DNA from: Patescibacteria group bacterium UBA3466
Lineage (GTDB): Bacteria; Patescibacteriota; Minisyncoccia; Phycocordibacterales; UBA918
DNA length: 64,000 bases
Assembly: GCA_002378195.1 (NCBI GenBank)
Contig: DFRJ01000002.1
Span: forward strand, 329,677-393,676
Direction of reading: 5' to 3'
Shown one piece after another: positions 16,617-49,025 of this stretch. A model generated the notes under the pieces. That model was not told where the DNA came from, ran no database searches, and saw only the letters and a list, made by a program, of their open reading frames with translations. Position numbers and translations under genes: made by a program. Numbering within the stretch: the first letter of the stretch is position 1; every line of letters begins with the position of its first letter.

Positions 16617-17537
16617 CTAACGATCAGCCTCTTTTGCCGGCATACGCCGCACCGACTGGATTGAAGCACAAACGCTTTTATTGGTGCTAGAAGCCACTAA
16701 TTCAGCCCTCTCCGGCACACCAGCTCTTATTTCTATCTCGTCGGCATGTTCACGCATTCTTTTTATAAACATATCTCGCTCGTAACGCATCTCTTCTAAG
16801 GACATCGCCCTATCCATCATCCACGGAAAAGCGCCGCAGGCATAAAATCTACCGCTATCAACATCAGATGATCGACCGATCAGTCTAACTATTTTCTGCG
16901 TAGCCAATAGAGTCAAATCACGCTCGTTTAGCTCACTCACATCCATTACCCAGCGCCCACCATCAACGTCAACAAACACTACTGTCGTACTAGGTACCGT
17001 ATCCTCAAACACTCTCTGACCTAATAGACGACCTTCCGCTGGGGCTTGCCAGAGCTTTTGCTCCATCTTTTCTTGTGACATGTACATTTTGATATGAGTA
17101 CCGAGAGCATTATCAACCACATGCCCCAAATCGCTCGCCTGTAACAAAACTCCGACTACCACGCTCATAGCAACACTACTCCCTACAATCATCCAAGCTG
17201 GATACCTGTAACCCCTCACTGTGTGTCTTATATTAAAGGTTGCAAAATAGGCCATCAAACCAAACACCAAAAACCATAAATACGGCAAAGCTTCCACCAT
17301 AAATGTTAGCCAGTTGTCATGGGTTGCCTCATAAAAAGCATACTGACGGTTCATTACCACAAAGAGAGATACGGCTACGGCCATGGCCCCAACCACCACT
17401 GACAACACCCAAAACAACCAGACCGAACACTCTCGACACAGGAAAAAGAATCGTGACTTTGGACACACCTGCTCTGACTCGATTCTTTTAAAGAGCGCGT
17501 CTTTCAGATTATTCTCGTTTTGATCTGGCTTTTTCAT
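16617..17537 (-). CDS. Membrane protein, putative anti-sigma factor. It has a short cytoplasmic N-terminal Cys motif (C-x10-C-x2-C), then TM helices and an extracytoplasmic domain
   Basis: It lies directly downstream of, and is probably co-transcribed with, the ECF sigma gene. The topology fits; there is no sequence-family match by eye. Confidence 0.45.
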   Translation of the reverse strand: MKKPDQNENNLKDALFKRIESEQVCPKSRFFFLCRECSVWLFWVLSVVVGAMAVAVSLFVVMNRQYAFYEATHDNWLTFMVEALPYLWFLVFGLMAYFATFNIRHTVRGYRYPAWMIVGSSVAMSVVVGVLLQASDLGHVVDNALGTHIKMYMSQEKMEQKLWQAPAEGRLLGQRVFEDTVPSTTVVFVDVDGGRWVMDVSELNERDLTLLATQKIVRLIGRSSDVDSGRFYACGAFPWMMDRAMSLEEMRYERDMFIKRMREHADEIEIRAGVPERAELVASSTNKSVCASIQSVRRMPAKEADR

Positions 17538-17551
17538 AACTATTCACAACC

Positions 17552-18136
17552 TTATATACGTAACTTCTCAGTATTTAATACATTTTGTAGCTGCTTTTTG
17601 CCTCGATGCAATAGCGTACCCACTGACCCCACCGGTATCTTCAAAATATCAGATATCTCATCGTATTCTTTATGTTCAAAAAAACGCAATATGATTACTT
17701 CTCGATACTTATTATCAAGCTGTAGCAATGCTCTATTTAAAACCTCCGCATTGATACCCTGGTCAAACACCACGTCCGCGGCATCTTCCTTCGCGCTCAA
17801 AAAAGAAATAACTTCTTCTCCATCAGCGATCAAATGTCCTTCAGGACGCACATTCTTCTTCCGATACCAACTAATCGCCTCATTGTGGGCAATCCGATAG
17901 ACCCACGAAGAAAACTTCAGAGAAGTATCGAAGCCATTGATATTGCGATAGGTTTTCAAGAAAATGTCTTGTAGGACATCACTTTGGTCTTCTGGATCCC
18001 GTACACCTAGACGGGCGATATACCTAGTTAATTTTGCTTGATAGCGATCCACCAAAACACCAAAGTGCTCTTTGTCACTAATAGTTAACTTTACGATCTC
18101 TTCATCGCTTGGTGGAAGTTCGGGTGTACCGTCCAT
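17552..18136 (-). CDS. ECF-type sigma-70 family RNA polymerase sigma factor
   Basis: Region 2 (DVLQDIFLKTYRNINGF...WVYRIAHNEAISWYRKK). Region 4 HTH (REVIILRFFEHKEYDEISDILKIPVGSVGTLLHRGKKQL). Confidence 0.8.
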   Translation of the reverse strand: MDGTPELPPSDEEIVKLTISDKEHFGVLVDRYQAKLTRYIARLGVRDPEDQSDVLQDIFLKTYRNINGFDTSLKFSSWVYRIAHNEAISWYRKKNVRPEGHLIADGEEVISFLSAKEDAADVVFDQGINAEVLNRALLQLDNKYREVIILRFFEHKEYDEISDILKIPVGSVGTLLHRGKKQLQNVLNTEKLRI

Positions 18137-18406
18137 AAAATAATGTATCCGTGTCTAACAATAGTTGCATGAAACGGACTTAAATTAAACCAGTGCTGAT
18201 TAATAGTACGCTAAGAGTTCGTTAAAATTTCGAGTATCGCCATTCAGGCCGCTTATTTTCACATGCTCCGATGTCCACCCAACCAAACCGAGCACTCAAT
18301 CCCCTCAGGCGCTCAAATATGCGGCCTACACGACTCCATTGTCAAACAACAGTACTTATGCCACTATGCGCATATTCATACCAACCAACAAAATGGAGAG
18401 GATGAC

Positions 18407-18905
18407 TATGAATAGTGTTCTAAAGACTGTAAGTCTGATAATTTTAGCGACAATTGTACCCCTATCTGGCTGCGACAAAAAAGAGGAAGTGCTGCCACCG
18501 GACAACATCATCAAGGAAGAGGTGGCCACACCTGCACCCGCACCAGAGCTGGCGCCGCCAGTTGAGGCTGTAGCTATATCAAATGCAGACATCGCCGGTC
18601 GGCCGTTACCACAGGACGAAATCGTCATCGACCAGGAAGAGGTGGCTGAAATGCTCACCGAAGAAGTAGCGAACGAGATACTTCAGTCCGGCACCGTGGT
18701 ATTCATCTTCAATGATGGCTCGGCTAACACTGAACTGGTAGTAGATGTCTATCACTGCATCAGTGACGATGAAGTTGATCAACAGTGTGTCCAAAATGAA
18801 GCAGAAAAAGTCATTCCTGGCACCGCTTACCGTCGTACGGACTATTGCATTAACAGTTGCAGCTCCAAAGGTCAGTCCGAGATCACGCGAGTGATTGAAG
18901 GCTAA
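18407..18905 (+). CDS. Putative lipoprotein (lipobox LSGC), acidic secreted protein of unknown function
   Basis: The ORF track gives 18339-18905. A GGAGAGG RBS precedes the ATG at 18407 (MNSVLKTVSLIILATIVPLSGC). Confidence 0.5.
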
Positions 18906-18928
18906 AATAACCAAAGAAAAGCTGGTCC

Positions 18929-18956
18929 AGCCGCCTAAAGGCGGCTTTTACTTTTA
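18929..18956 (+). terminator. Intrinsic terminator AGCCGCCTAAAGGCGGCTTTTACTTTT
   Basis: Hairpin plus T-run, read directly from the sequence. Confidence 0.7.
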
Positions 18957-18996
18957 GTATTGAAAATTACAGTTATTTATGGCATAATCACGACCT

Positions 18997-19707
18997 ATGG
19001 AATTCCCGATGCGGATAAATAAATACCTCGCCCACAACAACATCGCCTCACGCCGTGAAGCCGATGTGCTTATTGCGGCCGGAAAGGTACTCATAAATGG
19101 CAAAAAAGCCGAAATGGGGCAGCAGGTGGAAGAAGGTGACAGGGTAGACATCAAGGGAAAAACAAAATCTAAAACCTACCTCGCCTACTACAAAGGTCGC
19201 GGAATCATCACTCACTCCCCTTCCGTCAAAGAAACGGACATCGCTACTAAGCTCGAGACAGACTATGGTCTTACCGGCGTAGCTCCAGTTGGACGCCTCG
19301 ACAAGGATTCTGAGGGTCTTATCATCCTCTCTAATGACGGACGGATTACCGGACCACTCTTAAATCCTGAAGCCAACCACGAGAAAGAGTACGAGGTGCT
19401 GGTAGACAAGCGTGTGTCAGGGATGTTTGTGCGAGCAATGCAAAACGGTGTCGATATCGAAGGCTACCGCACCAAGCCAGCTAAAGTGGCTCCAAGTCAA
19501 AAAAACGACAAACGCTTCACTCTCATTATTACCGAAGGTAAAAAACACCAAATCCGCCGGATGTGTGCTGCTCTCGGCTTCCAAGTGCAAACTCTGAAAC
19601 GGACCAGAGTAATGAACATCAAACTAGGAAAGATAAAACCCAACCAATTCCGTAAGATAGAAGGGAGTGAGCTTGATACACTCCTCAAATCATTAAAAAT
19701 CAAATAA
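18997..19707 (+). CDS. Pseudouridine synthase, RsuA/RluB family (S4 domain plus catalytic domain)
   Basis: S4-like N-terminus (RINKYLAHNNIASRREADVLIAAGKVLINGKKA). Catalytic motif GRLDKDSEGLIILSNDG. Confidence 0.8.
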   Translation: MEFPMRINKYLAHNNIASRREADVLIAAGKVLINGKKAEMGQQVEEGDRVDIKGKTKSKTYLAYYKGRGIITHSPSVKETDIATKLETDYGLTGVAPVGRLDKDSEGLIILSNDGRITGPLLNPEANHEKEYEVLVDKRVSGMFVRAMQNGVDIEGYRTKPAKVAPSQKNDKRFTLIITEGKKHQIRRMCAALGFQVQTLKRTRVMNIKLGKIKPNQFRKIEGSELDTLLKSLKIK

Positions 19708-19733
19708 AAAACCCGCCAAATTGGCGGGTTTTG
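19705..19733. terminator. Bidirectional intrinsic terminator AAAAACCCGCCAAATTGGCGGGTTTTG
   Basis: Read directly from the sequence. It sits between convergent genes. Confidence 0.7.
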
Positions 19734-19750
19734 ACTGAAACCAGACGATC

Positions 19751-20097
19751 TTACTTGATAGTTAGGTAGAGACTCTGGTCGACTAGTTCCTTGACGGGTA
19801 TCTCAGGAACCCGTTCTGACGGGCCGCCGAGTGACGTGTGTACAAGGAATTCTCCATCGAAAGTATACGAGCGAAAATTTCCCAAATCATACGTGTAGCT
19901 CAACTCGAGTGGCGGAACCCCCTCAATCCACACCTTGGTACCATCAGGCACCCTAACTTCATGCTGACCTGCAAATCCATAGCCCGCAACAAACTTACAC
20001 CGCCCCGGTGAATCACCAGGTAACACATGGACTCTTTCACCGCTTTTTGGACAGGTGGGTTCCACATCAGCCGCTCCCAACGATGCTTGTGTCTGCA
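19751..20097 (-). CDS. Hypothetical small cytoplasmic protein. The likely start is the internal ATG at 20097, preceded by AAGGAG; the annotated N-terminal extension would read through the upstream gene's terminator
   Basis: The ORF track gives 19751-20194. The terminator hairpin at 20201-20230 and the RBS position argue for the shorter form. Confidence 0.4.
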
Positions 20098-20200
20098 TCT
20101 CATCTCCTTTTTGTACTATTAGTGGTTTCGCCCCTTGCTCAACCTCTATTTCGAATATAACTCTAAGTCTTGAATTGCGCAAATGGTAATGCACATGAAT

Positions 20201-20230
20201 AAAAGGCCGGAGCGAAGCTCCGGCCTTTTA
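20201..20230 (-). terminator. Intrinsic terminator AAAAGGCCGGAGCGAAGCTCCGGCCTTTTA, overlapping the stop of the CNNM gene
   Basis: Read directly from the sequence. A near-identical copy lies at 25276-25305. Confidence 0.7.
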
Positions 20231-21190
20231 TTCATCCCCATCATCCTCATCCTCAATCTCCTGCTGAATAATCTCTTCGATAATATCCTCCATAGAAACC
20301 ACCCCAATAAACTGTTTTTGACTATTTTGCACAATCGCTAAATGCTGCCGATTCTTAAGCATCCGCGCCAGAACCCGATCCAACATATCGTTTCCTCGTA
20401 CCCGTAAAAACTTTTTATCTACCGCATCTTCAGTTTGTCTCAGTGAAATATCATCATCCTCAACCAACAATTCTTTTACATATAAAATACCGATAATATT
20501 GCTTTCATTTCCGCTATAAACCGGGATTCGTGAGTAGCCGCTGTCAGTGATTTTTTCAAAAAAGTCATCAGTTAGTTTTTGATTTTCATCCGCCGACACC
20601 ACGTCTTTGGCAGGAGTCATGACTTCTCTCACTCGTACATGCGAAAACTGCAGCGCGCCGTGCAAAATCCGCTCCTCATCAGCATCAATATCACTATGCT
20701 CTGAGTTCTCGTGCTCTGAGATAATGTCCATTAACTCAGACTTTGAATAGGTAGTGGGTAATTCCGAACCAAGGAAGTAGTCTAGAACCTTTGAGATCGG
20801 CCAAGCAATCGGAAAACACAGTACAATTGCCAACTTAGTAAACCAAATGGTTTTAGCGCCAAACCATAGCGCATAGCGTGAAATCACTGCTTGCGGGATA
20901 ATCTCACCAAAGACCACGATAAGGGCTGTAGCAATGATCCCTGCGATCAGGCCAGATGCGATTGTACCCAAAAAGATAGATAAGGTGGTGTTAACGGCCA
21001 CGTTACCTAGAAGTAGCGTAGTCAACAGTAAATTTCCATTTTGCCGCACCGGGTAAATAGTTTTAGCATTTTCATCACCGTGCCTGGCCCGTCTAGCGAG
21101 TGATTGGGTATCTAGCGATAGGAGTCCAAGTGTTAAGCCCGAGAAGAGCCCTGATAAAAGCACAAGGACTAAAGATATTATGTATTCCAT
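20228..21190 (-). CDS. CNNM/CorC/TlyC-family membrane protein (DUF21 TM domain plus CBS pair)
   Basis: The N-terminal DUF21-like TM region (LVLVLLSGLFSGLTLGLLSLD) is followed by CBS-like sequence and an acidic C-terminus. Confidence 0.75.
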   Translation of the reverse strand: MEYIISLVLVLLSGLFSGLTLGLLSLDTQSLARRARHGDENAKTIYPVRQNGNLLLTTLLLGNVAVNTTLSIFLGTIASGLIAGIIATALIVVFGEIIPQAVISRYALWFGAKTIWFTKLAIVLCFPIAWPISKVLDYFLGSELPTTYSKSELMDIISEHENSEHSDIDADEERILHGALQFSHVRVREVMTPAKDVVSADENQKLTDDFFEKITDSGYSRIPVYSGNESNIIGILYVKELLVEDDDISLRQTEDAVDKKFLRVRGNDMLDRVLARMLKNRQHLAIVQNSQKQFIGVVSMEDIIEEIIQQEIEDEDDGDE

Positions 21191-21300
21191 GAATTATTCG
21201 CCACATTTCAACACGTTTTATAAAAAATAGCAACTGAATAATCTGGAATCCAGCTGGATTTAAAACCATTATTAATTAAGCAATGTTACAATAAGAAAAT

Positions 21301-22209
21301 ATGGCAACAATGGGTAAATTTTCATTAATGAACGGGAATATTGTTCCTACCGAAGAAGCCACTGTTTCAGTGGCTAGCTCAGCTGTTTTATACGGACTCA
21401 GCGTATACTCTGTCTTCTTTGGCAAACACACCCCAGACGGCATGTTGTGCTTTAGGATCCCAGATCACATTAAGCGACTCCAACAATCAGCTCGCATGAT
21501 TGGCCTCACCGGCACAACTCAGACTCTTGAGAAAGAACCGTTAGTTGAAGAAATCAAAGAGCTGATTGCTATGAACAAACCAACCACTGACCAATTCTTC
21601 AGAGTCACTGTACACGCCGTGTCAGAGGTAGCTGGCGTGCGCACCTCAGATTTAGACTTGGTGACTTCAGTCTTTATGTACGACGCGGTCAATATTTTGC
21701 CGCAAGATCAGGCCAAGCTAAAGACCAGCCTCTGGCGTCGTACGGCCGATACTGCCATCCCTGCTCGAGCCAAGGTGAATGGTGCTTACGTTAATTCGGC
21801 TCTAGCTAAGCAAGACGCTATCGACGCCGGTTTTGATGACTGCTTATTCTTAAATCAAAATGGCTATGTGAGCGAGCTCAGTGCGGCTAACATTTTTATG
21901 ATTAAACGTGGTGAATTGATCACTCCTGACTGCGCTTCAGACATCTTAGAAGGGATCACTCGCCGCAGCATTATCGAACTGGCCGAACAGAAAGGAATGA
22001 AGATTTGTGAGCGCAAGGTCGCTCTCACTGAAATGTATACCGCTGATGAAGTGTTCGCTTGTGGCACCTCAGCTTTTGTGTCACCAATCGTAAATATTGA
22101 CGGACGGATAATTTCCGACGGTACCAGCGGCAAGTACACTAATGATCTCCGTCAACAATTAGCCGACGCTCAAGCTGATCTGACAAGTGACTGGACCACC
22201 TTACTCTAA
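21301..22209 (+). CDS. Class IV (fold type IV) aminotransferase, either branched-chain amino-acid or D-amino-acid aminotransferase
   Basis: Length and motifs match (EGITRRSIIELAEQKGMKICERKV...ADEVFACGTSAFVSPIVNIDGR). The N-terminus resembles IlvE/Dat. Confidence 0.7.
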   Translation: MATMGKFSLMNGNIVPTEEATVSVASSAVLYGLSVYSVFFGKHTPDGMLCFRIPDHIKRLQQSARMIGLTGTTQTLEKEPLVEEIKELIAMNKPTTDQFFRVTVHAVSEVAGVRTSDLDLVTSVFMYDAVNILPQDQAKLKTSLWRRTADTAIPARAKVNGAYVNSALAKQDAIDAGFDDCLFLNQNGYVSELSAANIFMIKRGELITPDCASDILEGITRRSIIELAEQKGMKICERKVALTEMYTADEVFACGTSAFVSPIVNIDGRIISDGTSGKYTNDLRQQLADAQADLTSDWTTLL

Positions 22210-22214
22210 AGGTA

Positions 22215-22598
22215 TTAAAAAATAGCGTGCGCTAAGAGCATAATAGCGAACATGCAAAAAATATAGCCGACTTCAATACTGATGGTAAGGCGGTTTTTTT
22301 GCGCGAAGAAACCGCTGGCTTTAGTGAAAGCGATGATTGTTAGTGTGATCAAAATGGCGAGCGGCAAATCGTTATAGACTTCGGTCATGCCGATTGCCCA
22401 AGCCATAAAAAAAGTAGCGAAAGCCTGCGCAATCAAACCCAGCTTCATGTCTCCCCCTCCAGATTTTGTAAGACCCAAGCCAGACCGCCATTTTGGACCA
22501 AAGGCATAATCGCTATACCAAATATACCCAACCAGAAAAGATACGATTGACCCTAGGCACACGGCTGTCCAGTTAGTATCAATAAATAGAGGTTCCAT
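22215..22598 (-). CDS. Small integral membrane protein (4 TM), unknown function
   Basis: Hydrophobicity pattern only. Confidence 0.4.
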   Translation of the reverse strand: MEPLFIDTNWTAVCLGSIVSFLVGYIWYSDYAFGPKWRSGLGLTKSGGGDMKLGLIAQAFATFFMAWAIGMTEVYNDLPLAILITLTIIAFTKASGFFAQKNRLTISIEVGYIFCMFAIMLLAHAIF

Positions 22599-22673
22599 GT
22601 CAGTATTACTATAAGGACATTGTACTCTGAATCCACAAAAGTAGTACTGTTGGTTGTGGTTATTACGAAGTAA

Positions 22674-22696
22674 GGCCGGCGTCTACGACGCCGGCC
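22674..22696. repeat. GC-rich palindrome GGCCGGCGTC-TAC-GACGCCGGCC, a member of the GGCCGGCG hairpin family
   Basis: Read directly from the sequence. It is downstream of the 22700-23197 gene but has no T-run. Confidence 0.6.
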
Positions 22697-22699
22697 ATT

Positions 22700-23197
22700 C
22701 TATCCACACAAGATTTTCCACCAAAACGGAAACTCGGTCCGAATCACAGTCATAAGTAGCTCTTGATTACGAGCGCCAATATCTGGCAACCACGCACTAC
22801 ACTCCATGACCACTCGACTAGACTTATCCCAGGTATTATCTACAACATGTGACACGTGCACAATGTCATCATCGCCGTACCAAATGACGGAACAAAAACC
22901 ATGCCTCAAACCTTGGTTGACGATTTGATCACGGAAATAATCAATACTGGTCAGTATTTCATTACGCTCATCCAATGACAGAGCGTTCTCACCTGTACCA
23001 GTATCAAACGCCAACAAGAAAATCGGTGCGGATTCGGGAAAACCTTCTGGAGTAACAGACAGAGTCAACAAACCTCTCTCAGTCACTCCACACTCATTAG
23101 CCACTGCTCGCAACTTACTCCTGATTAGATATATTTTTAATAGACCATCAAGCCGATTGAGAAGATTACCCGCATAACGCAAAACTGATTGGAACAT
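22700..23197 (-). CDS. Hypothetical cytoplasmic protein (165 aa), first of a run of small orphan genes
   Basis: ORF with a diverged copy of the conserved leader (TCCTCGCTATTCGCGCATTAG) immediately upstream. Confidence 0.45.
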   Translation of the reverse strand: MFQSVLRYAGNLLNRLDGLLKIYLIRSKLRAVANECGVTERGLLTLSVTPEGFPESAPIFLLAFDTGTGENALSLDERNEILTSIDYFRDQIVNQGLRHGFCSVIWYGDDDIVHVSHVVDNTWDKSSRVVMECSAWLPDIGARNQELLMTVIRTEFPFWWKILCG

Positions 23198-23289
23198 TAC
23201 TAATCCTCGCTATTCGCGCATTAGATAATAAAAAGGTACTAGAACCATCAATATCTTGCAACAAAAAAGCCGCATAGGCTCTTTTGTCC

Positions 23290-23805
23290 TTAGCGGCTGT
23301 TAATTAATACGAACTGGTGACGACAGCGTTTGCCATAGATCAACGCGTTATGGTGAAAGATCTCGACCAGGTTCATTGCTCGACTGCTTGGCGACCAGAT
23401 GAGAAATTCAATAATCGACAGATCATTTCCTGATTCATCTTCCGATATTCCCACCCTGAAAGCATAAGTGTCATTTAGCCGGTACACACCGGTTGTACCC
23501 TTCCACTCCACTTCCAAAGGATGATTAATGAAGGCTTGAAACGCCTCTTCAATTAACCCACGGTCACCCTCTTCCGTATTGCAGGCTACGCACGAATCTA
23601 TAGCATTGATTACCTCATTTTCACCACTCAAACTTGGGCCGGGAAAATGAGCAATAAAATTCATGGCGAACTTGTCGGTAAACTCAATTGATTCAGCGAG
23701 GCTTGCAACTGTATTACACATCAGCTGCACCTGAACACTGGTATCTGGCGGTAAATCGACCTCGACTTCGATATATGATTCTTGTACCTTGTCCTGTTCA
23801 ATCAC
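23290..23805 (-). CDS. Hypothetical acidic cytoplasmic protein (171 aa), GTG start, preceded by the conserved leader and RBS
   Basis: AGGAG lies 6 nt upstream of the GTG. A terminator hairpin (AGCCGC...GCGGCTTTTTTG) lies downstream at about 23245-23285. Confidence 0.45.
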   Translation of the reverse strand: MIEQDKVQESYIEVEVDLPPDTSVQVQLMCNTVASLAESIEFTDKFAMNFIAHFPGPSLSGENEVINAIDSCVACNTEEGDRGLIEEAFQAFINHPLEVEWKGTTGVYRLNDTYAFRVGISEDESGNDLSIIEFLIWSPSSRAMNLVEIFHHNALIYGKRCRHQFVLINSR

Positions 23806-23851
23806 TATTAACTCCTCGCTTTCGCGTAGTTAAGAGTTTTTTAAGATACTG
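23806..23851 (-). promoter_or_regulatory. Conserved ~46-nt leader (minus strand: CAGTATCTTAAAAAACTCTTAACTACGCGAAAGCGAGGAGTTAATA), copy 1, containing the RBS and a CGCGAAAGCG mini-hairpin
   Basis: It is near-identical to 24587-24632, and a diverged copy lies at 23198-23225. Confidence 0.6.
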
Positions 23852-24076
23852 TAGCAATCTAGATAATGCAAATCACAGCATACCCTACTGACCAAGCAGG
23901 TCAGCTGCCTCTTCTGCACCATTAATCATTTCGTTGTATTCCCGCCTTTGCTCAGCCATAGTTTTACCCTCGGTAGACTGATTGGCGCTGGTCATCCACC
24001 ATATTGCAAAAGCAGTTACGAATAAAATAGAAATTAAACTGAATACTCTCATTGAGTTAGTTTACTATATAAAAAT

Positions 24077-24099
24077 GCCGGCGAGCAAAGCTCGCCGGC
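24077..24099 (-). terminator. Terminator hairpin GCCGGCGAGC-AAA-GCTCGCCGGC followed on the minus strand by ATTTTTATAT (for the 24143-24586 gene)
   Basis: Read directly from the sequence. Confidence 0.6.
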
Positions 24100-24142
24100 C
24101 ACCGCACCACCCTCAGTGCTTTCTTGGCATCTTCACAAAGTG

Positions 24143-24586
24143 TCACCAGATTCTTTCAGATAATGCCGCCACTGCTGTGCAAGCTTCCTGAAGCCTGTCA
24201 CCCTGACCAGAAAAACAAAATGCTACTACGGAATCTGCATTGGCATGCCAAAAATCAACCTCCCAGTAAGCAAAAAAGACGGATCCTCCGGCACAATCAT
24301 AGAGTGCCAAGTCTTCAAATTTATGCCTCTGATTAATGTACTCGTCCATAATGACTCCTACATGCGCCTTGAGCTCATCAGATACAGGTAGCAGCAAATT
24401 GGGGTAAACAACCCAATCTTTGTAAGTCACTGACTGATTGCAATCAACCTGAGACGGATACGCCACCTGATAAGCAACGGTCAGCTCACCCTCAAAGCCT
24501 GCCTGATCAATTGCTTGTGCGATCTCATAATTCAAAATGAACACTTTCTCGATTTGCAAGTAACCCTCATCAGCTACAGTCCGCAT
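24143..24586 (-). CDS. Hypothetical cytoplasmic protein (147 aa) preceded by the conserved leader and RBS
   Basis: ATG start with AGGAG 6 nt upstream. No homology was recognised. Confidence 0.45.
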   Translation of the reverse strand: MRTVADEGYLQIEKVFILNYEIAQAIDQAGFEGELTVAYQVAYPSQVDCNQSVTYKDWVVYPNLLLPVSDELKAHVGVIMDEYINQRHKFEDLALYDCAGGSVFFAYWEVDFWHANADSVVAFCFSGQGDRLQEACTAVAALSERIW

Positions 24587-24632
24587 TTCTAACTCCTCGC
24601 TTTCGCGTAGTTAAGAGATTATTAGGATACTG
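24587..24632 (-). promoter_or_regulatory. Conserved ~46-nt leader, copy 2 (minus strand: CAGTATCCTAATAATCTCTTAACTACGCGAAAGCGAGGAGTTAGAA)
   Basis: It matches 23806-23851 over a 29-nt core (TAACTCCTCGCTTTCGCGTAGTTAAGAG), with 4 mismatches in the full 46 nt. Confidence 0.6.
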
Positions 24633-24704
24633 CAAACAATACGCTCTAGCAAATAAAAAAGCTGCTAGAGATACCTCCAGCAGCCTACCGACAGCTTACA
24701 GTGA

Positions 24705-25211
24705 TTAATTCACCATTTTTTGCCGTACTCTAGCCCAGTGCCTATCAATGGATTTTTGTGTTGCCTCCCACAGACAACGCTCCGGATTAGATGTTAGATA
24801 CTTAGTAAAATGTTCCAGATTAGTACCGTCAAATGATCTCAGTAGCACCATCAAGATTGAGACCCCGGGCCAACCCTCTTTATACATCCAAACGTTATCC
24901 AGTACCTGACCAGACACGCTCTTGGCAACCACTTTGCCTGCGCAAATATCCTGATAGAGCCTAGGCAAAGAACCAGGGCCATCTCTCAATATTTGACGGT
25001 CTCCACTATCACAATCTGGACTATAGCCCTGCATCACGTAGTGATAACCAGGGTGACTATTCCAAGGACCAGGCTCATAGCGAGCAATGCATATTTCATA
25101 ACCTACCCTGTCATTTTTTTGCACAACGTTAGCGTGTTTAAAAATATTCACCACCTCAAGAGACAGAGTAGTACCATCTCCCAGATAGTTTAAAGCGTAT
25201 GGGTTAGACAT
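24705..25211 (-). CDS. Hypothetical cytoplasmic protein (168 aa)
   Basis: ORF with its own terminator hairpin downstream (GCTGCT..AGCAGC plus T-run at about 24650-24690). It is not leader-associated. Confidence 0.45.
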   Translation of the reverse strand: MSNPYALNYLGDGTTLSLEVVNIFKHANVVQKNDRVGYEICIARYEPGPWNSHPGYHYVMQGYSPDCDSGDRQILRDGPGSLPRLYQDICAGKVVAKSVSGQVLDNVWMYKEGWPGVSILMVLLRSFDGTNLEHFTKYLTSNPERCLWEATQKSIDRHWARVRQKMVN

Positions 25212-25275
25212 TTCATGCCTCCAAAGAACTTAATAACTAGTAAACTTAGTACCTAAAATTTATGACATTGTCAAT

Positions 25276-25305
25276 AAAAGGCCGGGGCGAAGCTCCGGCC
25301 TTTTT
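25276..25305 (-). terminator. Intrinsic terminator AAAAGGCCGGGGCGAAGCTCCGGCCTTTTTG after typA
   Basis: It is near-identical to the terminator at 20201-20230. Confidence 0.7.
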
Positions 25306-25306
25306 G

Positions 25307-27088
25307 TTATTTATCTCGCTTTCGTTCGCTTTCTTTAAGAAATTGCTTACGTAGTCTAATTGACTCCGGACAAACTTCTAGATATTCGTCGGCCAACATA
25401 ATCTCAAGTCCAAGCTCGATTGAAAGTGGTTTGTGGGGAGTTAGATTGATCGCATCATCACTTCCTGACGCTCTGACGTTGGTAAGCTGCTTTCCTTTCG
25501 TCGGATTTACCACCATCTCTTCTCCCTTTGAGGTATTTCCGATCACCATACCTTCATACACCTCTTCTCCCGCTCCAATATATAACTCACCTCGATCTTG
25601 CAGTCCAAAGAGTGAAAAACCAAGCGCTTTTCCCGTCGCCATTGACGTCATTGAGGCTGTCTTTCGTTTCTTGATCTCTCCCGCATATGGTCGGAACTCA
25701 ATAAATCGTGAGGCCATAATTCCCTCACCTTTAGTATCAATGATGAATTGGTTCTTGTAGCCAAGTAGACCACGGGTTGGACCTTCAAACAATAACCGCA
25801 CCTGATTCTCGTGCGGAATCATGTTTTGCATAATAAAGCCGCGATTAGAAAGTCGTTCGATCACCGCTCCCTGGTACTCTTCTGGAATATCAATAGTTAC
25901 TTCCTCGTACGGCTCAGACTTCACGCCATCAATTTCTTTGATAATCACCTCTGGTTGAGATACGGATAGTTCGTACCCTTCTCGTCTCATGTTTTCAAGA
26001 AGTACCGCAATGTGCATTTCTCCTCGTCCTTTTACTAGGAAGGTGTCACCAGTACTTTCAACTTGCAGACCAACGTTAATCTCCAGCTCTTTTTCGAGTC
26101 GTTCACCAATTTGTCGTGAGGTTACATACTTTCCTTCTCGTCCAGCAAATGGACTTGAATTTACCAAGAATGTCATTGCTACTGTTGGCTCATCTACTGA
26201 GATAGCTGGCAACAGCTCAGCTCCTTCATCATCGGTAATAGTTTCACCAATATTAATATCTTCTAAACCAGCAATCAGAACAATGTCTCCAGCGTAAGCA
26301 TCTTCTAACTCTACCTGCTTTACTCCTTCGTAACCTGAAAGCTTCACGATCTTCCCCTTCTTAGTTTCTTCACCTTCAGATTTAATAAATACTTGTTGAC
26401 CCTTTGAAACCTTTCCGTCGTAGATTCGTGCCACTGCGAGTCGCCCAAGGAAGTTATCGTAACCAAGATTAAACACCTGAGCTCGGAGGGCATCAGCTTC
26501 GTCATATCCCTTAGCCGCTGGCACGTGCTCGAGCACAGTATCAAGAACTGGTGCAAGATCTGTCATCTCGTCTTCCATATTCTTTTTGGCCACACCGTCT
26601 CGTCCAATAGCGTAAACTACCGGAAAATCAGACTGTTCGTCGTTTGCACCTAGTTCTAGGAAAAGCTCCAAGACTTGCTCTTCAGCCCGATCAGGATCAG
26701 CCGCTGGCTTATCGATCTTGTTTAGTACCACAATTGGCTTCAAGCCTAACTCGAGAGACTTCTTGAGTACGAAACGTGTTTGTGGCATTGGACCCTCCTG
26801 CGCGTCGACCACCAACAGCACCGAATCGATTGAACGTAGTACCCGTTCTACCTCTGATCCGAAGTCGGCGTGACCAGGAGTGTCTACAATATTAATCTTG
26901 GTATCTTTGTAGGTTACTGAAGTATTCTTGGCGTAAATGGTAATACCCCGCTCTTGCTCAAGCGCGTTATTATCCATTGACGCATCACCGTCTCGGGAGC
27001 CAGTAAATTCCATCAAACCATCTGTAAGCGTGGTTTTTCCGTGGTCTACGTGCGCGATGATTGCGATATTACGAATTTCCTGTGACAT
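25307..27088 (-). CDS. typA: Translational GTPase TypA/BipA
   Basis: [24 protein letters not shown] and NKID G-motifs, with EF-G-like domains. The true start is MSQEIRN at 27088; the ORF-track extension to 27169 reads through an upstream GC palindrome. Confidence 0.9.
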
Positions 27089-27289: not shown

Positions 27290-27991
27290 ATGACAAATAT
27301 AGATTGTCCGCTATCTGAAACCGAAACAAAGTTTCTTGAATTGGGCGAACTGCTCGTTAATATTGAAAACCTAGAGCAAAAAGCTTGCGAGCTAGGTCAA
27401 TCTTTAGCAGACAACATTGCTGATGGAGCACGAACAGGCGACGATTTTTTCGACTTCTTAATCTGCACCAATAGCGGAAAGTACGATCCGGCCATGCCAG
27501 AACATAACTACCACGAACTCTTCGAAATGCTTGCAACAGAACCTGGGCGCGACATCATGATCTGCCAAATGGCATATTTCATGCACACTGATGCAAAAAT
27601 TTCTCTTTGGTCTATCTATTTGGCAACACTAAGAGAAGGAGAAGTAATTTTCCGACCAGACGAAGAAATGATGACCATTCCGGTCGAGCCGGGTTATATC
27701 AAGTACCAAGAGGTGATCGAAAAAAACCAGTTCAAGTTTGGCTGGCAAATCATTGACCATGATCGGCTGACCGTCGGCGGACTCGAACCACTCAACAATG
27801 ACACTCCGTTTATGGCTCACCGCTTTAGGACGGAAGACATTCGCTATGTTCCCCAGAAGACTCCATGCACCATTCAAAGGCACCCGTACGACCGCGTTGA
27901 GGATGAATACGGCATCAACCCTAGTCTTATTGATAGGCTCGACAAACTATGGCTACGTAGTCGTCGTAAGCTGACCTTAGTCGCCGGTTAA
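27290..27991 (+). CDS. Hypothetical cytoplasmic protein (about 233 aa)
   Basis: AGGAG RBS at 27277-27281 and ATG at 27290. The ORF track begins at 27263. No family was recognised. Confidence 0.5.
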   Translation: MTNIDCPLSETETKFLELGELLVNIENLEQKACELGQSLADNIADGARTGDDFFDFLICTNSGKYDPAMPEHNYHELFEMLATEPGRDIMICQMAYFMHTDAKISLWSIYLATLREGEVIFRPDEEMMTIPVEPGYIKYQEVIEKNQFKFGWQIIDHDRLTVGGLEPLNNDTPFMAHRFRTEDIRYVPQKTPCTIQRHPYDRVEDEYGINPSLIDRLDKLWLRSRRKLTLVAG

Positions 27992-28004
27992 TCTGACTGG
28001 ACCA

Positions 28005-28031
28005 GCCCGCACCTCAGGTGCGGGCTTTACA
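28005..28031 (+). terminator. Intrinsic terminator AGCCCGCACCTCAGGTGCGGGCTTTA
   Basis: Read directly from the sequence. Confidence 0.65.
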
Positions 28032-28099
28032 ATTCACCCAAAAAAGCCAGATTAGCATAATAAGCCAATACCAAGCCGGAAATAATAATCATGATCACC

Positions 28100-28795
28100 T
28101 TAAGAACCATTGGCTATAACCTTACGATATTGCCACGTCCGACGGATTAAGTAGAGTAGTATTACAATACCGATCGGGTAGTAGATCAGTGACGACGTCA
28201 ACATCTTCAAGGCTGAGTAGCCATAAAATGATTGGATAGTACGAGCATTCGAGATCGCTTCAAAATAGCCACTTGATTCTCCAGGCTGACCTAAGTCCAA
28301 GACATATTTACCAATATTAACCGGTGTACTTACCTCAAGCCTATACACACCATCGTCTAGCTGTTGGGTGATAATGTCACTCTGCCAGAAAGTTAAACCA
28401 ACTCCACCATCCTTAATTCTAGTCCAGTTTTCATTCTGTGGATTAAAACGCGCAATCTCGGTCACTCCGCCACCCCGGCGATCTTGCTTAACTAAGATTA
28501 AACCAAACGGTATCGGATCACCTTCCACTTGATACAACTGACGCAGTGACACATTGAAGGCAGTGTCCTCACTAAGTTTAAATTGATACATTACCGGAAA
28601 ATCTTCCAGGGTACCAAGATGGGTTTGTCGTTCATCAATATCTATATCGATATCAACCACCTCATACGGTTTTTGCACTTCAGTCAAAAGCACTTCATAG
28701 GCCAACACTGGTGAGGCCAGTAGGGTCACCCCCAAGATGAACAGTATTTTTTTCATAGCTTTATCATAGCAAAAGCCCGAAGTGCCGTCAGGCAC
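28100..28795 (-). CDS. Secreted protein with signal peptide and C-terminal TM anchor, unknown function
   Basis: Signal peptide (MKKILFILGVTLLASPVLA). C-terminal hydrophobic helix. Confidence 0.5.
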   Translation of the reverse strand: MPDGTSGFCYDKAMKKILFILGVTLLASPVLAYEVLLTEVQKPYEVVDIDIDIDERQTHLGTLEDFPVMYQFKLSEDTAFNVSLRQLYQVEGDPIPFGLILVKQDRRGGGVTEIARFNPQNENWTRIKDGGVGLTFWQSDIITQQLDDGVYRLEVSTPVNIGKYVLDLGQPGESSGYFEAISNARTIQSFYGYSALKMLTSSLIYYPIGIVILLYLIRRTWQYRKVIANGS

Positions 28796-28804
28796 TTCGG
28801 GCTA
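28771..28804 (-). terminator. Intrinsic terminator (GCCCGAAGTGCC-GTCA-GGCACTTCGGGC plus T-run on the minus strand)
   Basis: Read directly from the sequence. Confidence 0.65.
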
Positions 28805-28813
28805 ATATGGCTG

Positions 28814-29416
28814 TTAGTTTCTATTCCAGCCTCTATCTGGCAATTCCACTCCAGCTTCTTCTAAAATTGATCGTACCGTCTCTCTATCATTGGCTGCTCT
28901 TGCCACTCGCACCGCCTCTCGCTGCTCTTCGGTCAAATTCTCAATAATATCTGGTCTTTCCGGCTTGTGCTTACGCTCTATCCCTAAGTCATCAAAGATC
29001 TCTCGTGCCTCTTCGTGCTGCCCATCTTCTCTCAGTTCATGAGCTTCCCTAAATTTCTCAAAGTCAGCTTCAGAGGTAATAATATCGGCCAATGGACCGT
29101 CTTCTATCGCCTCTACAAAAGCTTCGTAGTCATTGTTCTCCACCGCTTCCCTTACCTCATTCTTAATCTCTCGCTTTGCGTCGCGAATAGACCGCATCAC
29201 TTCTTCATCAATACCAGCTTCGATTAGAATGTCTCTGGCTGAATCAGCATCTCCGTTTTTTCTTAGCTCATGCGCTTCTTCCAACGCAGCTATTTGATCC
29301 TCTGAAATATTGGCTCTTTGCAGAACCTTAGTCCCGCCATACGCATGCACTCCGGTCGTAGTGACCGCAAAGGCTGCTATGGCAATAAGTAATGATTTCG
29401 ATTGCATAAATTTCAA
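28814..29416 (-). CDS. Secreted helical repeat protein (three ~35-aa E/R-rich repeats)
   Basis: Signal peptide. Repeats EAHELRKNGDADSARDILIEAGIDEEV, FREAHELREDGQHEEAREIFDDLGIE and VRVARAANDRETVRSILEEAGVELPD. Confidence 0.5.
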   Translation of the reverse strand: MKFMQSKSLLIAIAAFAVTTTGVHAYGGTKVLQRANISEDQIAALEEAHELRKNGDADSARDILIEAGIDEEVMRSIRDAKREIKNEVREAVENNDYEAFVEAIEDGPLADIITSEADFEKFREAHELREDGQHEEAREIFDDLGIERKHKPERPDIIENLTEEQREAVRVARAANDRETVRSILEEAGVELPDRGWNRN

Positions 29417-29567
29417 TAGTTAATTAATTTTTGCAAGTGCTTCCGTCGGCCGCTCTTGTCACTTGCCTTAATTATTACGAACAAACCTTTAGAGCATTTC
29501 AAAAAGACGCAATTCCAAAATGGAATTGCGTCTTTTTGAAGATGTACGTCTCTTCCTTCAATCTATT

Positions 29568-30074
29568 TCAAATCGTATTAAAGTAATCCCAAACAGTAGC
29601 CAAACTTTGCCAAAGTTCACCATCACCATCGACCGCCGTGCCGCACGAATCTAAGAAATACGTCTCACCGGCTACGGTAATTTCATAAATTAGATCCAGT
29701 CCATCAACATCAGAATTACAACTTTCCGGATCAACCGGCTCAGATTCAATCGCCAGCGCTTCTGGTGTTAAATTAACTTTTAACTGCCTACTAATATTTA
29801 ACGGCAACACACCTTCACGAGTCAGTCGCTCACCATTGTCATCAGCACCATAAATAACACGATACTCACCATCATTATTAACATGAAAAGACGGACAAAC
29901 ATTCCGACACCCACCATACATGTCAGCAGTTACCGAAAACTCAGTCAAGGCGATACGATCATCAGCCACTCCGTTATTAACCAACGGCAAAAAACCAGTG
30001 GTATAGAAATATGCTCCGGTAAAAATCCCAGCGATTAAAGTAATAACTACACTCAGCCAATCCTGCTTATACAT
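29568..30074 (-). CDS. Secreted or membrane-anchored hypothetical protein (N-terminal TM, several Cys)
   Basis: ORF with an N-terminal hydrophobic segment. Confidence 0.45.
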   Translation of the reverse strand: MYKQDWLSVVITLIAGIFTGAYFYTTGFLPLVNNGVADDRIALTEFSVTADMYGGCRNVCPSFHVNNDGEYRVIYGADDNGERLTREGVLPLNISRQLKVNLTPEALAIESEPVDPESCNSDVDGLDLIYEITVAGETYFLDSCGTAVDGDGELWQSLATVWDYFNTI

Positions 30075-30141
30075 AATCCTAAGTATATCACCATAAATCT
30101 ACCATTTAATACAATTGGTTATGAGTACCAATATTCATGTA

Positions 30142-30180
30142 CAAAAAAATGGCTTCGCGCATATACATGCGCGAAGCCAT
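30142..30180 (-). terminator. Strong intrinsic terminator: a 14-bp-stem perfect hairpin (ATGGCTTCGCGCAT-ATAC-ATGCGCGAAGCCAT) followed on the minus strand by T8
   Basis: Read directly from the sequence. It lies downstream of the GC-rich ORF. Confidence 0.7.
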
Positions 30181-30224
30181 GGGCAAAGGATTCAAGTGCA
30201 AGCACATAGAATCCAAAGTCTAGG

Positions 30225-30818
30225 TCACCTTGCACCAACCGCCGCGGGGCAGTCGTCGCGCCAGTCGTAGCCGAGCCAGTTAGCGTACCAGTGCCACCTG
30301 TCGCCGACCCAGAGGAGATAACGGACGTAGAGGCGGCCGTCCCGGTTGCGGTAGATCGTCCCCCAGAAGAAAACGGCTTTGCCTTTCCACTCCTCGGGAA
30401 TGAGATGCGGTTTGGCGATCAGGTAGTCGAGAACATTTGCGTTCAAGACAGGCTTGTTCGCCAACCCCTTGCGGAGCTTGTAGCCTTTAATCCTTTTGCC
30501 GTTCTTCTGGCCTTTGTCGCGGTGGAGCGCATTCTTCTGGGATTCTTTGTCCCATTTGAACGCACCGCGTACTCGATTTGGGAGTTGCCCGTCGTCGGAC
30601 AGAATCGACCAGCCGTCGGGAACGTGCGGCTTGGCGTCGCAGTCGATGATGTGCTCAGGGGTGATAATTTCGACATCGCCAAGCAGGACGCGACGGACGG
30701 TGGCGAGCATATCCCCTTGCGAGAGCTTCTTCACTTCAGCCGGAGTCCAGCCATTTCGCTCGAAAGCGTGATCGAGTTCCGCAGCTTGGCGCGTAGACAT
30801 GATGAACCTGTCAGTCAT
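30225..30818 (-). CDS. Hypothetical protein encoded in an anomalously GC-rich segment (W/R-rich C-terminus), probably horizontally acquired
   Basis: AGAGGA RBS 8 nt upstream of the ATG at 30818. Local GC is visibly much higher than in flanking DNA. A long ORF overlaps on the opposite strand (30291-30935), as expected in GC-rich DNA. Confidence 0.5.
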   Translation of the reverse strand: MTDRFIMSTRQAAELDHAFERNGWTPAEVKKLSQGDMLATVRRVLLGDVEIITPEHIIDCDAKPHVPDGWSILSDDGQLPNRVRGAFKWDKESQKNALHRDKGQKNGKRIKGYKLRKGLANKPVLNANVLDYLIAKPHLIPEEWKGKAVFFWGTIYRNRDGRLYVRYLLWVGDRWHWYANWLGYDWRDDCPAAVGAR

Positions 30819-31067
30819 GACGTGTTCCTCTTTGGTTGTGTGACGTGTTCGAAGACGAACGTGTCACTTGCCAGCGGGCCTAACCGAGTATTTAGGGTTT
30901 GCCGTAGCAGCCAAAGTCCAACTTTTAGACACTGACTGCCACGGCAGACGTAAGTTTAAAAGGATCATTCGATCTAAATTTTGCCACAATATATTAGCAT
31001 TGTAAAGACAAGCACCCTAAACCGTCTTACACCTAGAATCAGATTGGTGCACACAGAATCTCAATCA

Positions 31068-31181
31068 TGGTGCAAGGATGCGCCTCGCAAAGAAAGCGGA
31101 GAAGACAGGATTCGAACCTGCTCACGGTAAAATAATCTCCCAGATTATTTTACCCCACACACGCTTTCCCCTGCAGTGCGG
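31068..31181 (-). repeat. 114-nt repeat A, copy 1. It is tRNA-like: a T-arm-like GCAGGTTCGAATCCTGT plus an acceptor-like 3' strand, a perfect 12-bp hairpin (GGTAAAATAATC-TGGGA-GATTATTTTACC), and ...TTGCACCA at its minus-strand end
   Basis: It matches 31993-32106 with 1 mismatch. I could not fold it as a complete tRNA: no 5' acceptor strand is present. Confidence 0.6.
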
Positions 31182-31272
31182 GCGGTCTCGAGTTAGGACC
31201 GTGTGATACCAAGCCCTGCTTGACCGACTCAACGATATTTTGGATTTAAACCGATAGTGCCTCGAGCACTTA

Positions 31273-31869: not shown

Positions 31870-31893
31870 AGTGTCTCGTGCTAGCTCTAAACG

Positions 31894-31942
31894 GCGGAGA
31901 GTGAGGGATTCGAACCCTCGATACGATTTCTCGTATACATCC
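31894..31942 (-). repeat. 49-nt direct repeat of the 3' part of tRNA-Ser(GGA) (variable arm, T-arm and acceptor 3' strand); an att-like scar
   Basis: It is identical to 32104-32152 of the intact tRNA. Confidence 0.7.
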
Positions 31943-31992
31943 GCCGACCTGATTTTTAAGGAGGCACGACTATAAAAATGGAAGTGCCCTAG

Positions 31993-48893: not shown

Positions 48894-49025
48894 ATCAATA
48901 CAAGTCAAGAATTATGCTGCTAACAGATTTCCCCTCTTACCGAGGCTGTACACCGTGTCGTTATTTCTTCTCGTGAACTCGAGAAATAACTGGCACGGTC
49001 TTGCGAAGGTCTCCCAGACCTTCTC

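Follow-up and report, generated by a model that had tools for sequence, protein, structure and literature searches.

A predicted Shine-Dalgarno-presenting hairpin leader shared by small orphan genes at a variable locus downstream of typA in an uncultured marine Patescibacteria bacterium

The locus described here lies within a 64,000-nucleotide stretch of Patescibacteria group bacterium UBA3466 (assembly GCA_002378195.1, contig DFRJ01000002.1, positions 329,677 to 393,676), hereafter called the window, and comprises a run of small genes, designated A to D, between typA and a class-IV aminotransferase gene. The array is on the minus strand and reads, from 5' to 3', typA, D, C, m55, B, A and a gene for a DUF1761 membrane protein, followed by the aminotransferase gene, which is convergent. 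A first-pass annotation made from the sequence had listed four same-strand genes of no recognised family at this site, and the four open reading frames (ORFs) were confirmed at the proposed positions and lengths. Thus, A (22700–23197, minus strand) encodes an orphan protein of 165 amino acids with a pI of 5.0, B (23290–23805, minus strand) a protein of 171 amino acids with a GTG start and a pI of 4.5, C (24143–24586, minus strand) a protein of 147 amino acids with a pI of 4.3 and D (24705–25211, minus strand) a protein of 168 amino acids with a pI of 7.7. The description of all four products as acidic is correct for A, B and C but not for D. A micro-ORF that had been reported between two of these genes is present and real but encodes 55 amino acids rather than 56; this gene, m55 (23885–24052, minus strand), lies between C and B and specifies a small membrane-anchored protein. 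The conserved anchor of the locus is the Pfam-annotated gene typA/BipA (25307–27088, minus strand; 593 amino acids), and the variable array follows directly downstream of it. GC content across the array is uniform (0.43–0.45), and A, B, C and D are predicted to be monocistronic.

Searches of Pfam, NCBIfam, PADLOC and PHROG returned no meaningful match for A to D. PADLOC gave zero matches for these proteins and for four relatives described below (B', L098_166, L098_156 and P0004), the sole PHROG match for the A to D set was a weak one for B (E 0.018) and the best match in a PDB profile search had an E value of 0.23. No Imm, SUKH or other immunity family was matched in Pfam, NCBIfam or PDB-profile searches, and neither a toxin gene nor a toxin C-terminal fragment was found beside the array among the Pfam-annotated neighbours (typA, DUF1761 and aminotransferase genes). 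Likewise, no integrase or recombinase Pfam family occurred among the called genes about 10 kb to either side or among the other window genes scanned. Scans of viral contigs with six of these proteins found zero relatives, and a phage origin of the array was rejected on this result and on the uniform GC content.

A near-identical block that the first-pass annotation had placed before B and C was delimited as 43 nt with 93% identity (23809–23851 upstream of B and 24590–24632 upstream of C). Within it, the exact 23-mer CTTAACTACGCGAAAGCGAGGAG occurs in two copies in 64 kb as opposed to 0.00 expected. The proposal that A carries a diverged copy was also borne out, since a covariance model trained without A (model R2) recovered the sequence upstream of this gene (18.3 bits, E 0.0075). 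With filters off, this was the top non-training match in the whole window (the runner-up had an E value of 0.76), and it stopped exactly at the ATG of A; mismatch searches had missed the copy because of indels in it. Leader covariance models applied to 116 kb of this lineage found only the known copies up to an E value of 10, and in two flanking loci, by which about 18 kb of sequence were newly covered, they matched nothing up to the same value. The leader is confined to these genes within the approximately 82 kb of this genome that were examined.

Strong Shine-Dalgarno (SD) sequences were noted in only 9 of 57 plausible window genes, four of the nine being A to D, and a –10-like TANNNT located 4–10 nt before the start codon, which is a signature of leaderless mRNA, was noted in about 21 of the 57. 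A generic ribosome-binding-site context, the trivial explanation that the first-pass annotation had foreseen, was rejected on these counts together with the copy number of the 23-mer. Most genes of the window thus appear to be leaderless or to lack an SD, a mode of initiation that is unusual for a marine bacterium of 44% GC.

At the Rfam gathering threshold, the window's sole match was a tRNA-Ser and the leader matched no family, and in a permissive Rfam scan of positions 22500–25400 all matches had E values of at least 0.8 and fell on terminators or on the typA–D intergenic region, none of them on the leaders. A leader 16-mer gave 17 single matches in viral contigs, with unrelated flanks, an 18-mer gave 68 single matches in GTDB genomes, in unrelated and mostly GC-rich taxa and none in this organism, and a 20-mer gave 0 matches in JGI metagenome contigs. 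Since the public collections scanned for the motif do not hold this locus, these scans are uninformative on genome-wide copy number. Some of the viral 16-mer matches coincidentally consist of a hairpin and an SD before an ATG. Moreover, several unrelated phage contigs among viral loci L007–L023 carry ACGCGAAAGCGAGGAG, a GAAA-tetraloop mini-hairpin that abuts the SD 6–11 nt before the ATG. The flanks of these phage copies are unrelated to the leader, and the placing of a stable tetraloop hairpin beside an SD is here probably a matter of convergence or chance.

The structure predicted for the leader was compared among five versions, i.e., those of A, B and C, that of B', a gene found in place of B in a sister strain (contig L092), and that of L098_166, a 166-amino-acid gene on a contig of a related lineage (L098). 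When the leaders of A, B, C and L098_166 were folded singly with RNAfold, a two-tier hairpin of nearly the same form resulted for each. This hairpin has an AU-rich outer stem, a 1x3 internal loop in which the three bases are the AGG of the SD and a 3-bp tip. The mini-hairpin described in the first-pass annotation corresponds to the tip (CGCGAAAGCG), which is present, but the predicted hairpin is larger, with an outer 6-bp stem that encloses this tip. The leader hairpin of B (23803–23836, minus strand), which ends at the GTG start, combines a UUAACU/AGUUAA outer stem and a 1x3 loop exposing AGG with a CGC-GAAA-GCG tip and has a minimum free energy (MFE) of –9.9 kcal/mol (z –2.4). Over the stretch from CUCUUAACU to GAGGAGUUA, the hairpin of C (24584–24617, minus strand) is the same as that of B; its outermost pair is a U-G wobble. 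In the diverged leader of A (23195–23227, minus strand), a CUAAU/AUUAG outer stem and an AGG internal loop accompany a CGC-GAAUA-GCG tip with a pentaloop; one C-G pair has been lost on both strands and the start codon is partly paired. The B' leader can be drawn as CCAuuACU/AGUuUGG around CGC-AACU-GCG, and that of L098_166 as ACCACU/AGUcGGU around CGU-GAGA-ACG, which for the latter is exactly the RNAfold MFE structure. The tip loop is thus a tetraloop or a pentaloop, of the GNRA type in three of the five versions. The fold upstream of D, which is without the leader, is unlike this hairpin.

Alignment of the five versions on this model showed pairing in 44 of 44 cells, with both sides changed in 4 of 9 pairs, including a change from C-G to U-A in the tip. 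The covariation score was 0.478 as opposed to 0.175 for shuffled alignments, 0 of 500 of which reached it, and no more than 0.067 when the partners were slid. A conserved hairpin with compensatory changes around the SD agrees with the post-transcriptional type of control element that had been suggested from the sequence. Each leader contains a strong SD (GAGGAG; duplex energy –6.4 to –8.2 kcal/mol) and one AGGA, located in the internal loop. The computed pairing probability of the SD core in B, C and L098_166 was 0.28–0.46, below the values for control SD genes of the window, and predicted SD pairing shifted by no more than about 0.18 between 10 and 45 °C.

Alignment of the regions upstream of A, B and C indicated a common layout, in which a –35 element of the form TTGCnn, a 17-nt spacer, a –10 element of the form TA(T/C)C(T/C)T and 6 nt precede a leader of about 33 nt, the last elements of which are GAGGA(G) and the start codon. 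The putative promoter of A (23233–23261, minus strand), placed by co-linear alignment, comprises TTGCAA (23256–23261) and TACCTT (23233–23238) and is 100% conserved in the sister strain. Those of B (23843–23871, minus strand; TTGCAT at 23866–23871 and TATCTT at 23843–23848) and C (24624–24652, minus strand; TTGCTA at 24647–24652 and TATCCT at 24624–24629) are likewise predicted and have the same 17-nt spacer; the 118-nt intergenic region that contains the latter shows one substitution between strains. The 43-nt repeat takes in the –10 and adjoining leader part of B (23843–23851) but not the –35, and the base of the B hairpin is 6 nt downstream of the promoter. In all five versions the hairpin base is 6–7 nt past the predicted –10 hexamer, and the hairpin would therefore be expected at the very 5' end of the transcript. 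D has a TTGACA promoter and a GGAGG SD of its own.

The first-pass annotation had assigned each of the four genes its own GC-hairpin terminator. A terminator scanner supported this for D (24659–24686, minus strand) and for C (24077–24099, minus strand), in which a 10-bp stem with 9 GC pairs is followed by a T-run. The scanner did not call the strong GC-rich hairpin after A (GGCCGGCGTCGTAGACGCCGGCC; 22674–22696, minus strand), which is terminator-like, belongs to repeat family D3 and has a poor T-run, and downstream of B only a weak 4-bp hairpin and a T-run were found. Elsewhere in the window, a 32-nt GC-hairpin terminator (AATAAAAGGCCGGrGCGAAGCTCCGGCCTTTT) occurs in two copies with 97% identity, after the CNNM gene (20198–20229) and after typA (25273–25304), and a GGCCGGCG...CGCCGGCC theme is common to other window terminators (repeat families D2 and D3).

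Paralogy was not evident from direct comparison of the proteins. Pairwise BLAST and shuffle tests among A to D and neighbouring window orphans gave zero paralogy, and word-indexed searches of 5.8e9 proteins with B and C returned only self-matches. Contigs of related lineages were reached through variant typA sequences from the same 90% cluster. One of these is L098, with a typA that is 90.6% identical; here typA and the aminotransferase gene are separated by a 166-amino-acid gene, a 156-amino-acid gene and a gene for a membrane-anchored leucine-rich repeat (LRR) protein. L098_166 matched B with an E value of 5.7e-11 over 150 amino acids and also matched B' (E 4e-5) and C (E 1.4e-4), and L098_156 matched B and B' with E values of 0.002 each. 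In leave-one-out profile hidden Markov model (HMM) searches against a background of 511 ORFs, E values were 2.6e-8 for B, 2.7e-7 for B', 1e-16 for L098_166, 4.5e-8 for L098_156 and 0.012 for C, the best non-member being at about 1.0. A search for related loci with L098_166 found only near-identical copies of L098. These findings show that B, B' and C form one hyperdivergent protein family linked through the bridging homolog L098_166, with B a fast-evolving member and C the most divergent. The family is most easily recognised at the C-terminus, where a hydrophobic strand, the motif W-x-P-D and a helix follow one another in this order. The view that the shared module precedes unrelated genes consequently had to be given up for B, C and B', while D is separate and A is unsupported by protein sequence. 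The best hhalign alignment of A with the family was co-linear on AWLPD, which corresponds to the W-x-P-D motif (P 0.17), and the placement of A in the family is inferred from its homologous promoter and leader, its size and its position.

No relation of D to the family was seen by hhalign. A homolog of D, P0004 (30% identical, E 4.8e-6), lies downstream of typA in L093, which is a more distant relative (typA 88% identical). Because its homolog is also downstream of typA, D is regarded as a separate fast-evolving gene at the same hotspot. In L093, where the genes downstream of typA are those of a 162-amino-acid membrane protein and the D homolog, a 17-nt box (TACTTGATTTTACATAy, with a –35-like TTGATT inside) is located upstream of both (approximately 1636–1652 and 2286–2302), which suggests that small neighbour genes with a common promoter sequence recur in this group. 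Residues 3–20 of D (PYALNYLGDGTTLSLEVV; 25160–25211) match a motif, YxGDGGTLSNVV, that occurs in about 12 repeats in P0005, a repeat protein of 1454 amino acids (E 4e-4), and that resembles fibre or adhesin-type repeats; the likeness is probably just a short shared motif. The m55 protein matched residues 1–47 of L098_175, the LRR protein at the same locus in L098 (BLASTP E 3e-6), and m55 is homologous to the N-terminal membrane anchor of that protein.

The relationships among leaders do not parallel those among proteins. Thus, the leaders of B and C are 84% identical over 50 nt (93% over the 43-nt block) while their proteins align with a score of 15, whereas B and L098_166 have a protein score of 111 and a leader identity of only 67%. 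As A, B' and L098_166 show, the fold is compatible with considerable change in sequence and would not by itself require the B and C leaders to be nearly identical. In addition to selection for the fold, these two leaders have therefore probably undergone homogenisation within this genome, through gene conversion or exchange of the module.

Six contigs from Tara and other samples were 100% identical to the window, and strains were compared by means of L092 (JGI 3300079434), which represents a diverged sister strain. Between the window and L092, 5.6% of typA sites differ, and the proportion of differing synonymous sites (pS) is 0.22, whereas only 0.6–2% of sites differ in D, C, m55, A and the DUF1761 gene (pS 0.03–0.06). 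The array is thus closer between strains than the adjacent typA, which suggests recent array exchange and recombination tracts. Divergence within typA itself is mosaic, with 3 to 23 differences per 200 nt when 25307–27088 of the window is compared with 1–1532 of L092.

Together, A, C, D and m55 showed 12 synonymous and 11 nonsynonymous differences, as opposed to a ratio of about 1:3 expected without constraint, and the ratio of nonsynonymous to synonymous divergence (pN/pS) was 0–0.55 per gene (0.10 for A). This synonymous excess indicates that the ORFs are real genes under purifying selection. The amino-acid sequence of m55 is 100% conserved in L092, with one synonymous change in the gene. 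A substitution hotspot was noted in the last 20 codons of C, which correspond to the C-terminal helix (10 mismatches in the interval 24039–24238), and in L092 this gene has lost its stop codon and encodes 157 amino acids. Between the same strains, the leader of A is 100% identical and that of C has one change, whereas the coding sequences differ by 1–2%.

The comparison of array content between strains that the first-pass annotation had proposed revealed a difference at the B slot. Here the whole B unit has been swapped for B' in L092 between flanks that are 98–100% identical; homology breaks off at the m55 stop codon and sets in again within the 3' half of the B terminator. B' encodes 174 amino acids from a TTG start located 6 nt after GAGGAG and has its own diverged promoter, leader and terminator, and its coding sequence has zero detectable DNA similarity to B. 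The change from B to B' could be an allelic replacement via recombination in the flanks, or it could reflect differential loss from an ancestor that had both units. The cassette-style behaviour suggested earlier is therefore seen in the swap of an entire unit, but the swapped unit brings its own diverged leader rather than a common, fixed one. The interval downstream of typA differs again in other relatives, with a gene for a membrane protein of about 300 amino acids in L094 and L095 and other content in L093 and L098, and typA proteins are 88–91% identical in relatives with different downstream content. This interval is a small hypervariable hotspot. Farther along the same contigs, the segment between the aminotransferase gene and a gene for an extracytoplasmic function (ECF) sigma factor is inverted in L092 (5208–9691, compared with 16953–21437 of the window), and the inversion junction in L092 is spanned by a chimeric 383-amino-acid ORF with an N-terminal membrane part and a C-terminal Aminotran_4 part.

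The interpretation that we favour, with a confidence only a little above even, is that A, B and C are tandem, diverged paralog units at a hypervariable locus next to typA and share a 5'-terminal hairpin leader that presents the SD. Under this interpretation, the three units would derive from one ancestral unit that consisted of a weak sigma-70-type promoter, a structured leader of about 35 nt, an acidic cytoplasmic protein of 150–175 amino acids and a terminator, and that came to be placed between typA and the class-IV aminotransferase gene of this uncultured marine bacterium. The coding regions would have diverged almost past recognition while promoter and leader were retained. Given the linkage of B, C and B' through L098_166, the presence of a shared leader is explained by common descent of whole promoter-leader-CDS-terminator units. 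Action at the RNA level is the most likely for the leader, the hairpin of which would form the 5' terminus of the transcript or be no more than a few nucleotides away from it. The 1x3 internal loop would leave the AGG of the strong GAGGAG SD unpaired and in this way present the SD, and the hairpin may be a common module that shields the 5' end and yields stable, efficiently translated mRNAs. Such a module would stand out in a genome with mostly leaderless or SD-less genes and could serve as a single handle for co-regulation of the family. On our analysis, a role of the leader in mRNA stability and translation would be the best-supported of those considered. The pattern of tandem, hyperdivergent genes with replacement between strains and a C-terminal substitution hotspot suggests that the proteins are of a binding or inhibitor type under diversifying or frequency-dependent selection.

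Several observations weigh against this interpretation. Both the transcription start site and the leader RNA itself are predictions from DNA sequence, and the predicted promoters score below the threshold of a standard consensus scanner. The covariation alignment, of five sequences, was hand-fitted with placed bulges. The hairpins are moderately stable (–6 to –10 kcal/mol) and only that of B clearly beats shuffled sequences (z –0.7 to +1.3 for the others). Furthermore, addition of 25 nt of coding sequence gave competing alternative folds in A, C and B', and the MFE structure of B' departs from the model. The membership of A in the family is without statistical support from the family HMM (E 2–20). 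The search for leaders in this genome covered approximately 82 kb, and copies elsewhere are possible. With regard to protein function, nothing was gained from AlphaFold, since the model of B alone had a pLDDT of 37 and was unusable and that of D, built from a 3-sequence alignment, had a pLDDT of 54 that was reached by one of five models; both models were too poor for a fold search to be meaningful.

A serious alternative, although one that we regard as unlikely, is that a trans-acting regulator common to the three genes binds the hairpin (a CsrA-like GGA-binder, a small RNA or the family proteins themselves in autoregulation), in which case A, B and C would be a small post-transcriptional regulon and the leader would serve chiefly for control rather than for stability. 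Consistent with this possibility, all five versions hold AGG(A) in a loop flanked by two conserved stems, the most conserved part of the leader is the loop-proximal CGC-loop-GCGAGGAG (CGU/ACG instead of CGC/GCG in L098), and conservation of the B and C leaders exceeds what the fold alone needs. However, there is one GGA site per leader, whereas CsrA targets usually carry two or more, and in the L098 pair of 166- and 156-amino-acid genes a single leader serves two genes.

The remaining readings are less likely. One of them, to which we give a low probability, holds that the likeness of the leaders is a by-product of duplication and recent gene conversion and that the hairpin has no selected function. 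The leaders of B and C, which are nearly identical although the proteins are barely related, are at odds with the protein tree and suggest homogenisation beyond constraint alone, and the thermodynamic z-scores of the hairpins are weak. A functionless relic is nevertheless difficult to reconcile with the independently diverged leaders of A, B' and L098_166, which keep their pairing by two-sided changes (from C-G to U-A in the tip and in three variable pairs of the outer stem) and hold the same distance from the –10 box, or with the near-constancy of the A leader (100% identical) and the C leader (one change) between strains in which the coding sequences differ by 1–2%.

Less probable still is a role of the repeat as DNA, either as a palindromic transcription-factor operator just past the promoter or as an integron-like recombination site for cassette capture. 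The TTAACT/AGTTAA arms do form an inverted repeat at about +4 to +30, and a unit has been replaced between strains at this locus. Yet the arms vary between copies while staying complementary, and one of the pairs is a U-G pair, which pairs only in RNA. Moreover, the boundaries of the replacement are the m55 stop codon and the terminator rather than the hairpin, B' carries its own leader, the repeat is 5' of genes that each have their own promoter, and no integrase was found among Pfam-annotated genes within about 10 kb. The analogy with integron or immunity-gene arrays drawn in the first-pass annotation was not upheld, given the position of the repeat on the 5' side with the promoter and given that an integrase, an attC-like 3' repeat and a toxin gene were not seen among Pfam-annotated genes within the same distance. 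Finally, the least probable of these readings is an RNA thermometer or a similar structural switch, by which the SD and start codon would be masked until melting of the AU-rich outer stem by a physical signal. In its favour, the leader is a short 5' hairpin in which an AU-rich stem and an internal loop surround the SD, and the start codons of A and B are partly paired. This candidate was rejected on computed accessibility, since AGG is in the internal loop, the SD core in B, C and L098_166 is mostly unpaired and less occluded than in controls, and predicted occlusion is nearly flat from 10 to 45 °C. Neither heat-shock nor cold-shock genes occur downstream.

Other features of the window and its flanks were recorded in passing. 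On the other side of typA (27290–31869) are six more genes without a Pfam family, of which F231, G197 and H168 (secreted or membrane proteins) have homologs that are 38–52% identical and in the same order upstream of typA in L094 and L095; conservation of this order indicates that they are conserved lineage-specific genes, unlike the variable array downstream. After a tRNA-Ser(GGA) gene (32103–32190, minus strand) comes a 114-nt element (31993–32106) that includes a T-arm resembling those of tRNAs; a second copy of this element (99% identical) is at 31068–31181. An exact 49-nt repeat of the 3' half of the tRNA gene occurs at 31894–31942, a nearby gene of 198 amino acids (31273–31869) has a weak match to PHROG 7805 (E 1.5e-5), and GC content falls to 0.37 near 31068–32190 and then climbs to 0.50–0.53. 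This region looks like the remnant of an integrative insertion or a duplication at the tRNA. An exact 34-nt direct repeat, CACCCCAATAAAACCCCTCCGGAAATTTTTTCAT, is present at 48860–48893 and 49025–49058, 165 nt apart, near the start of a GH1 gene. The window also encodes a 1551-amino-acid SpaA/SdrD_B/PG_binding protein under an ECF sigma/anti-sigma pair as well as Dockerin and Big-domain proteins, and just to the left of the window (L102, 11592–21539) is a giant ORF of 7532 amino acids with DUF2341 and Laminin_G_3 repeats. The organism is rich in large surface proteins.

What is described here is not a new kind of system but a new lineage-specific leader RNA motif together with a new ORFan family. 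It adds a candidate structured leader RNA outside Rfam, backed by compensatory substitutions, and a hyperdivergent, lineage-specific protein family outside Pfam, NCBIfam, PADLOC and PHROGs, with a reach that is apparently limited to one lineage. It also illustrates that a regulatory module can outlast recognisable coding similarity, in that leaders and a bridging homolog exposed ORFans as paralogs. The replacement of B pinpoints a small locus that is probably under diversifying or frequency-dependent selection, and such loci often encode conflict functions. A bolder proposal, which we consider improbable, is that the leader is an undescribed class of cis-acting RNA that marks hypervariable, conflict-type intracellular proteins subject to frequency-dependent selection and doubles as a homology patch for integrase-free exchange and homogenisation of cassettes between units and between strains. 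If this were true, a marine bacterium with a small genome would have a leader-anchored cassette-exchange system for proteins of cell-cell or phage conflict (e.g., inhibitors or immunity-like binders).

Compared with known systems, the array resembles the immunity arrays of polymorphic toxin, contact-dependent inhibition (CDI) and Rhs loci in its tandem, small, acidic, cytoplasmic and hyperdivergent proteins and in strain-specific replacement, but differs from them in that each gene has its own promoter and terminator and in that neither a toxin neighbour nor a match to an immunity family was found. Small orphan genes in a row on one strand, a repeated structured element and strain-variable content are shared with integron arrays. 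In contrast with the latter, in which attC is 3' and the cassettes are promoterless, the repeat described here is 5' and accompanied by a promoter and an SD, the 3' ends are ordinary, dissimilar terminators, the genes are paralogs and the replaced unit has its own leader, and no intI was seen among the scanned genes nearby. Flexible genomic islands and replacement hotspots adjoin conserved genes in marine bacteria, and variable content beside typA, allelic replacement between near-identical flanks and mosaic divergence are in keeping with such islands; this locus, however, measures only about 2.5 kb and consists of one paralog family and D, without glycosyltransferase or receptor genes.

At the level of RNA, leaders bound by CsrA/RsmA have a GGA in a hairpin loop that overlaps the SD, as is predicted for the leader described here, although the latter has a single GGA, placed in an internal loop instead of an apical one. 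RNA thermometers such as fourU, ROSE and the 5' untranslated region (UTR) of Synechocystis hsp17 are short 5' UTRs made up of a single hairpin, in which an AU-rich stem and an internal loop surround the SD and start codon. The present leader has the same general form but differs in the predicted exposure of its SD core in B, C and L098_166, in its small temperature dependence and in its association with genes other than those of chaperones and virulence regulators. PMC3997798 (with its references Emory et al. 1992, Hue et al. 1995 and Daou-Chabo et al. 2009) and PMC5737220 describe the stabilisation of bacterial mRNAs by 5'-terminal stem-loops and by ribosomes at a strong SD. Known examples, such as the ompA and papA hairpins of E. 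coli and the aprE, hbs, SP82 polypurine and ermC elements of B. subtilis, guard mRNA from 5'-end-dependent decay and tie stability to ribosome binding (PMC3997798; PMC5737220). The present leader would be like these stabilisers in having a hairpin at or near the predicted 5' end and a strong SD close by, and is unlike them in that its SD is within the internal loop of the hairpin rather than after the hairpin and in that it is common to a paralog family in a genome with mostly leaderless or SD-less genes.

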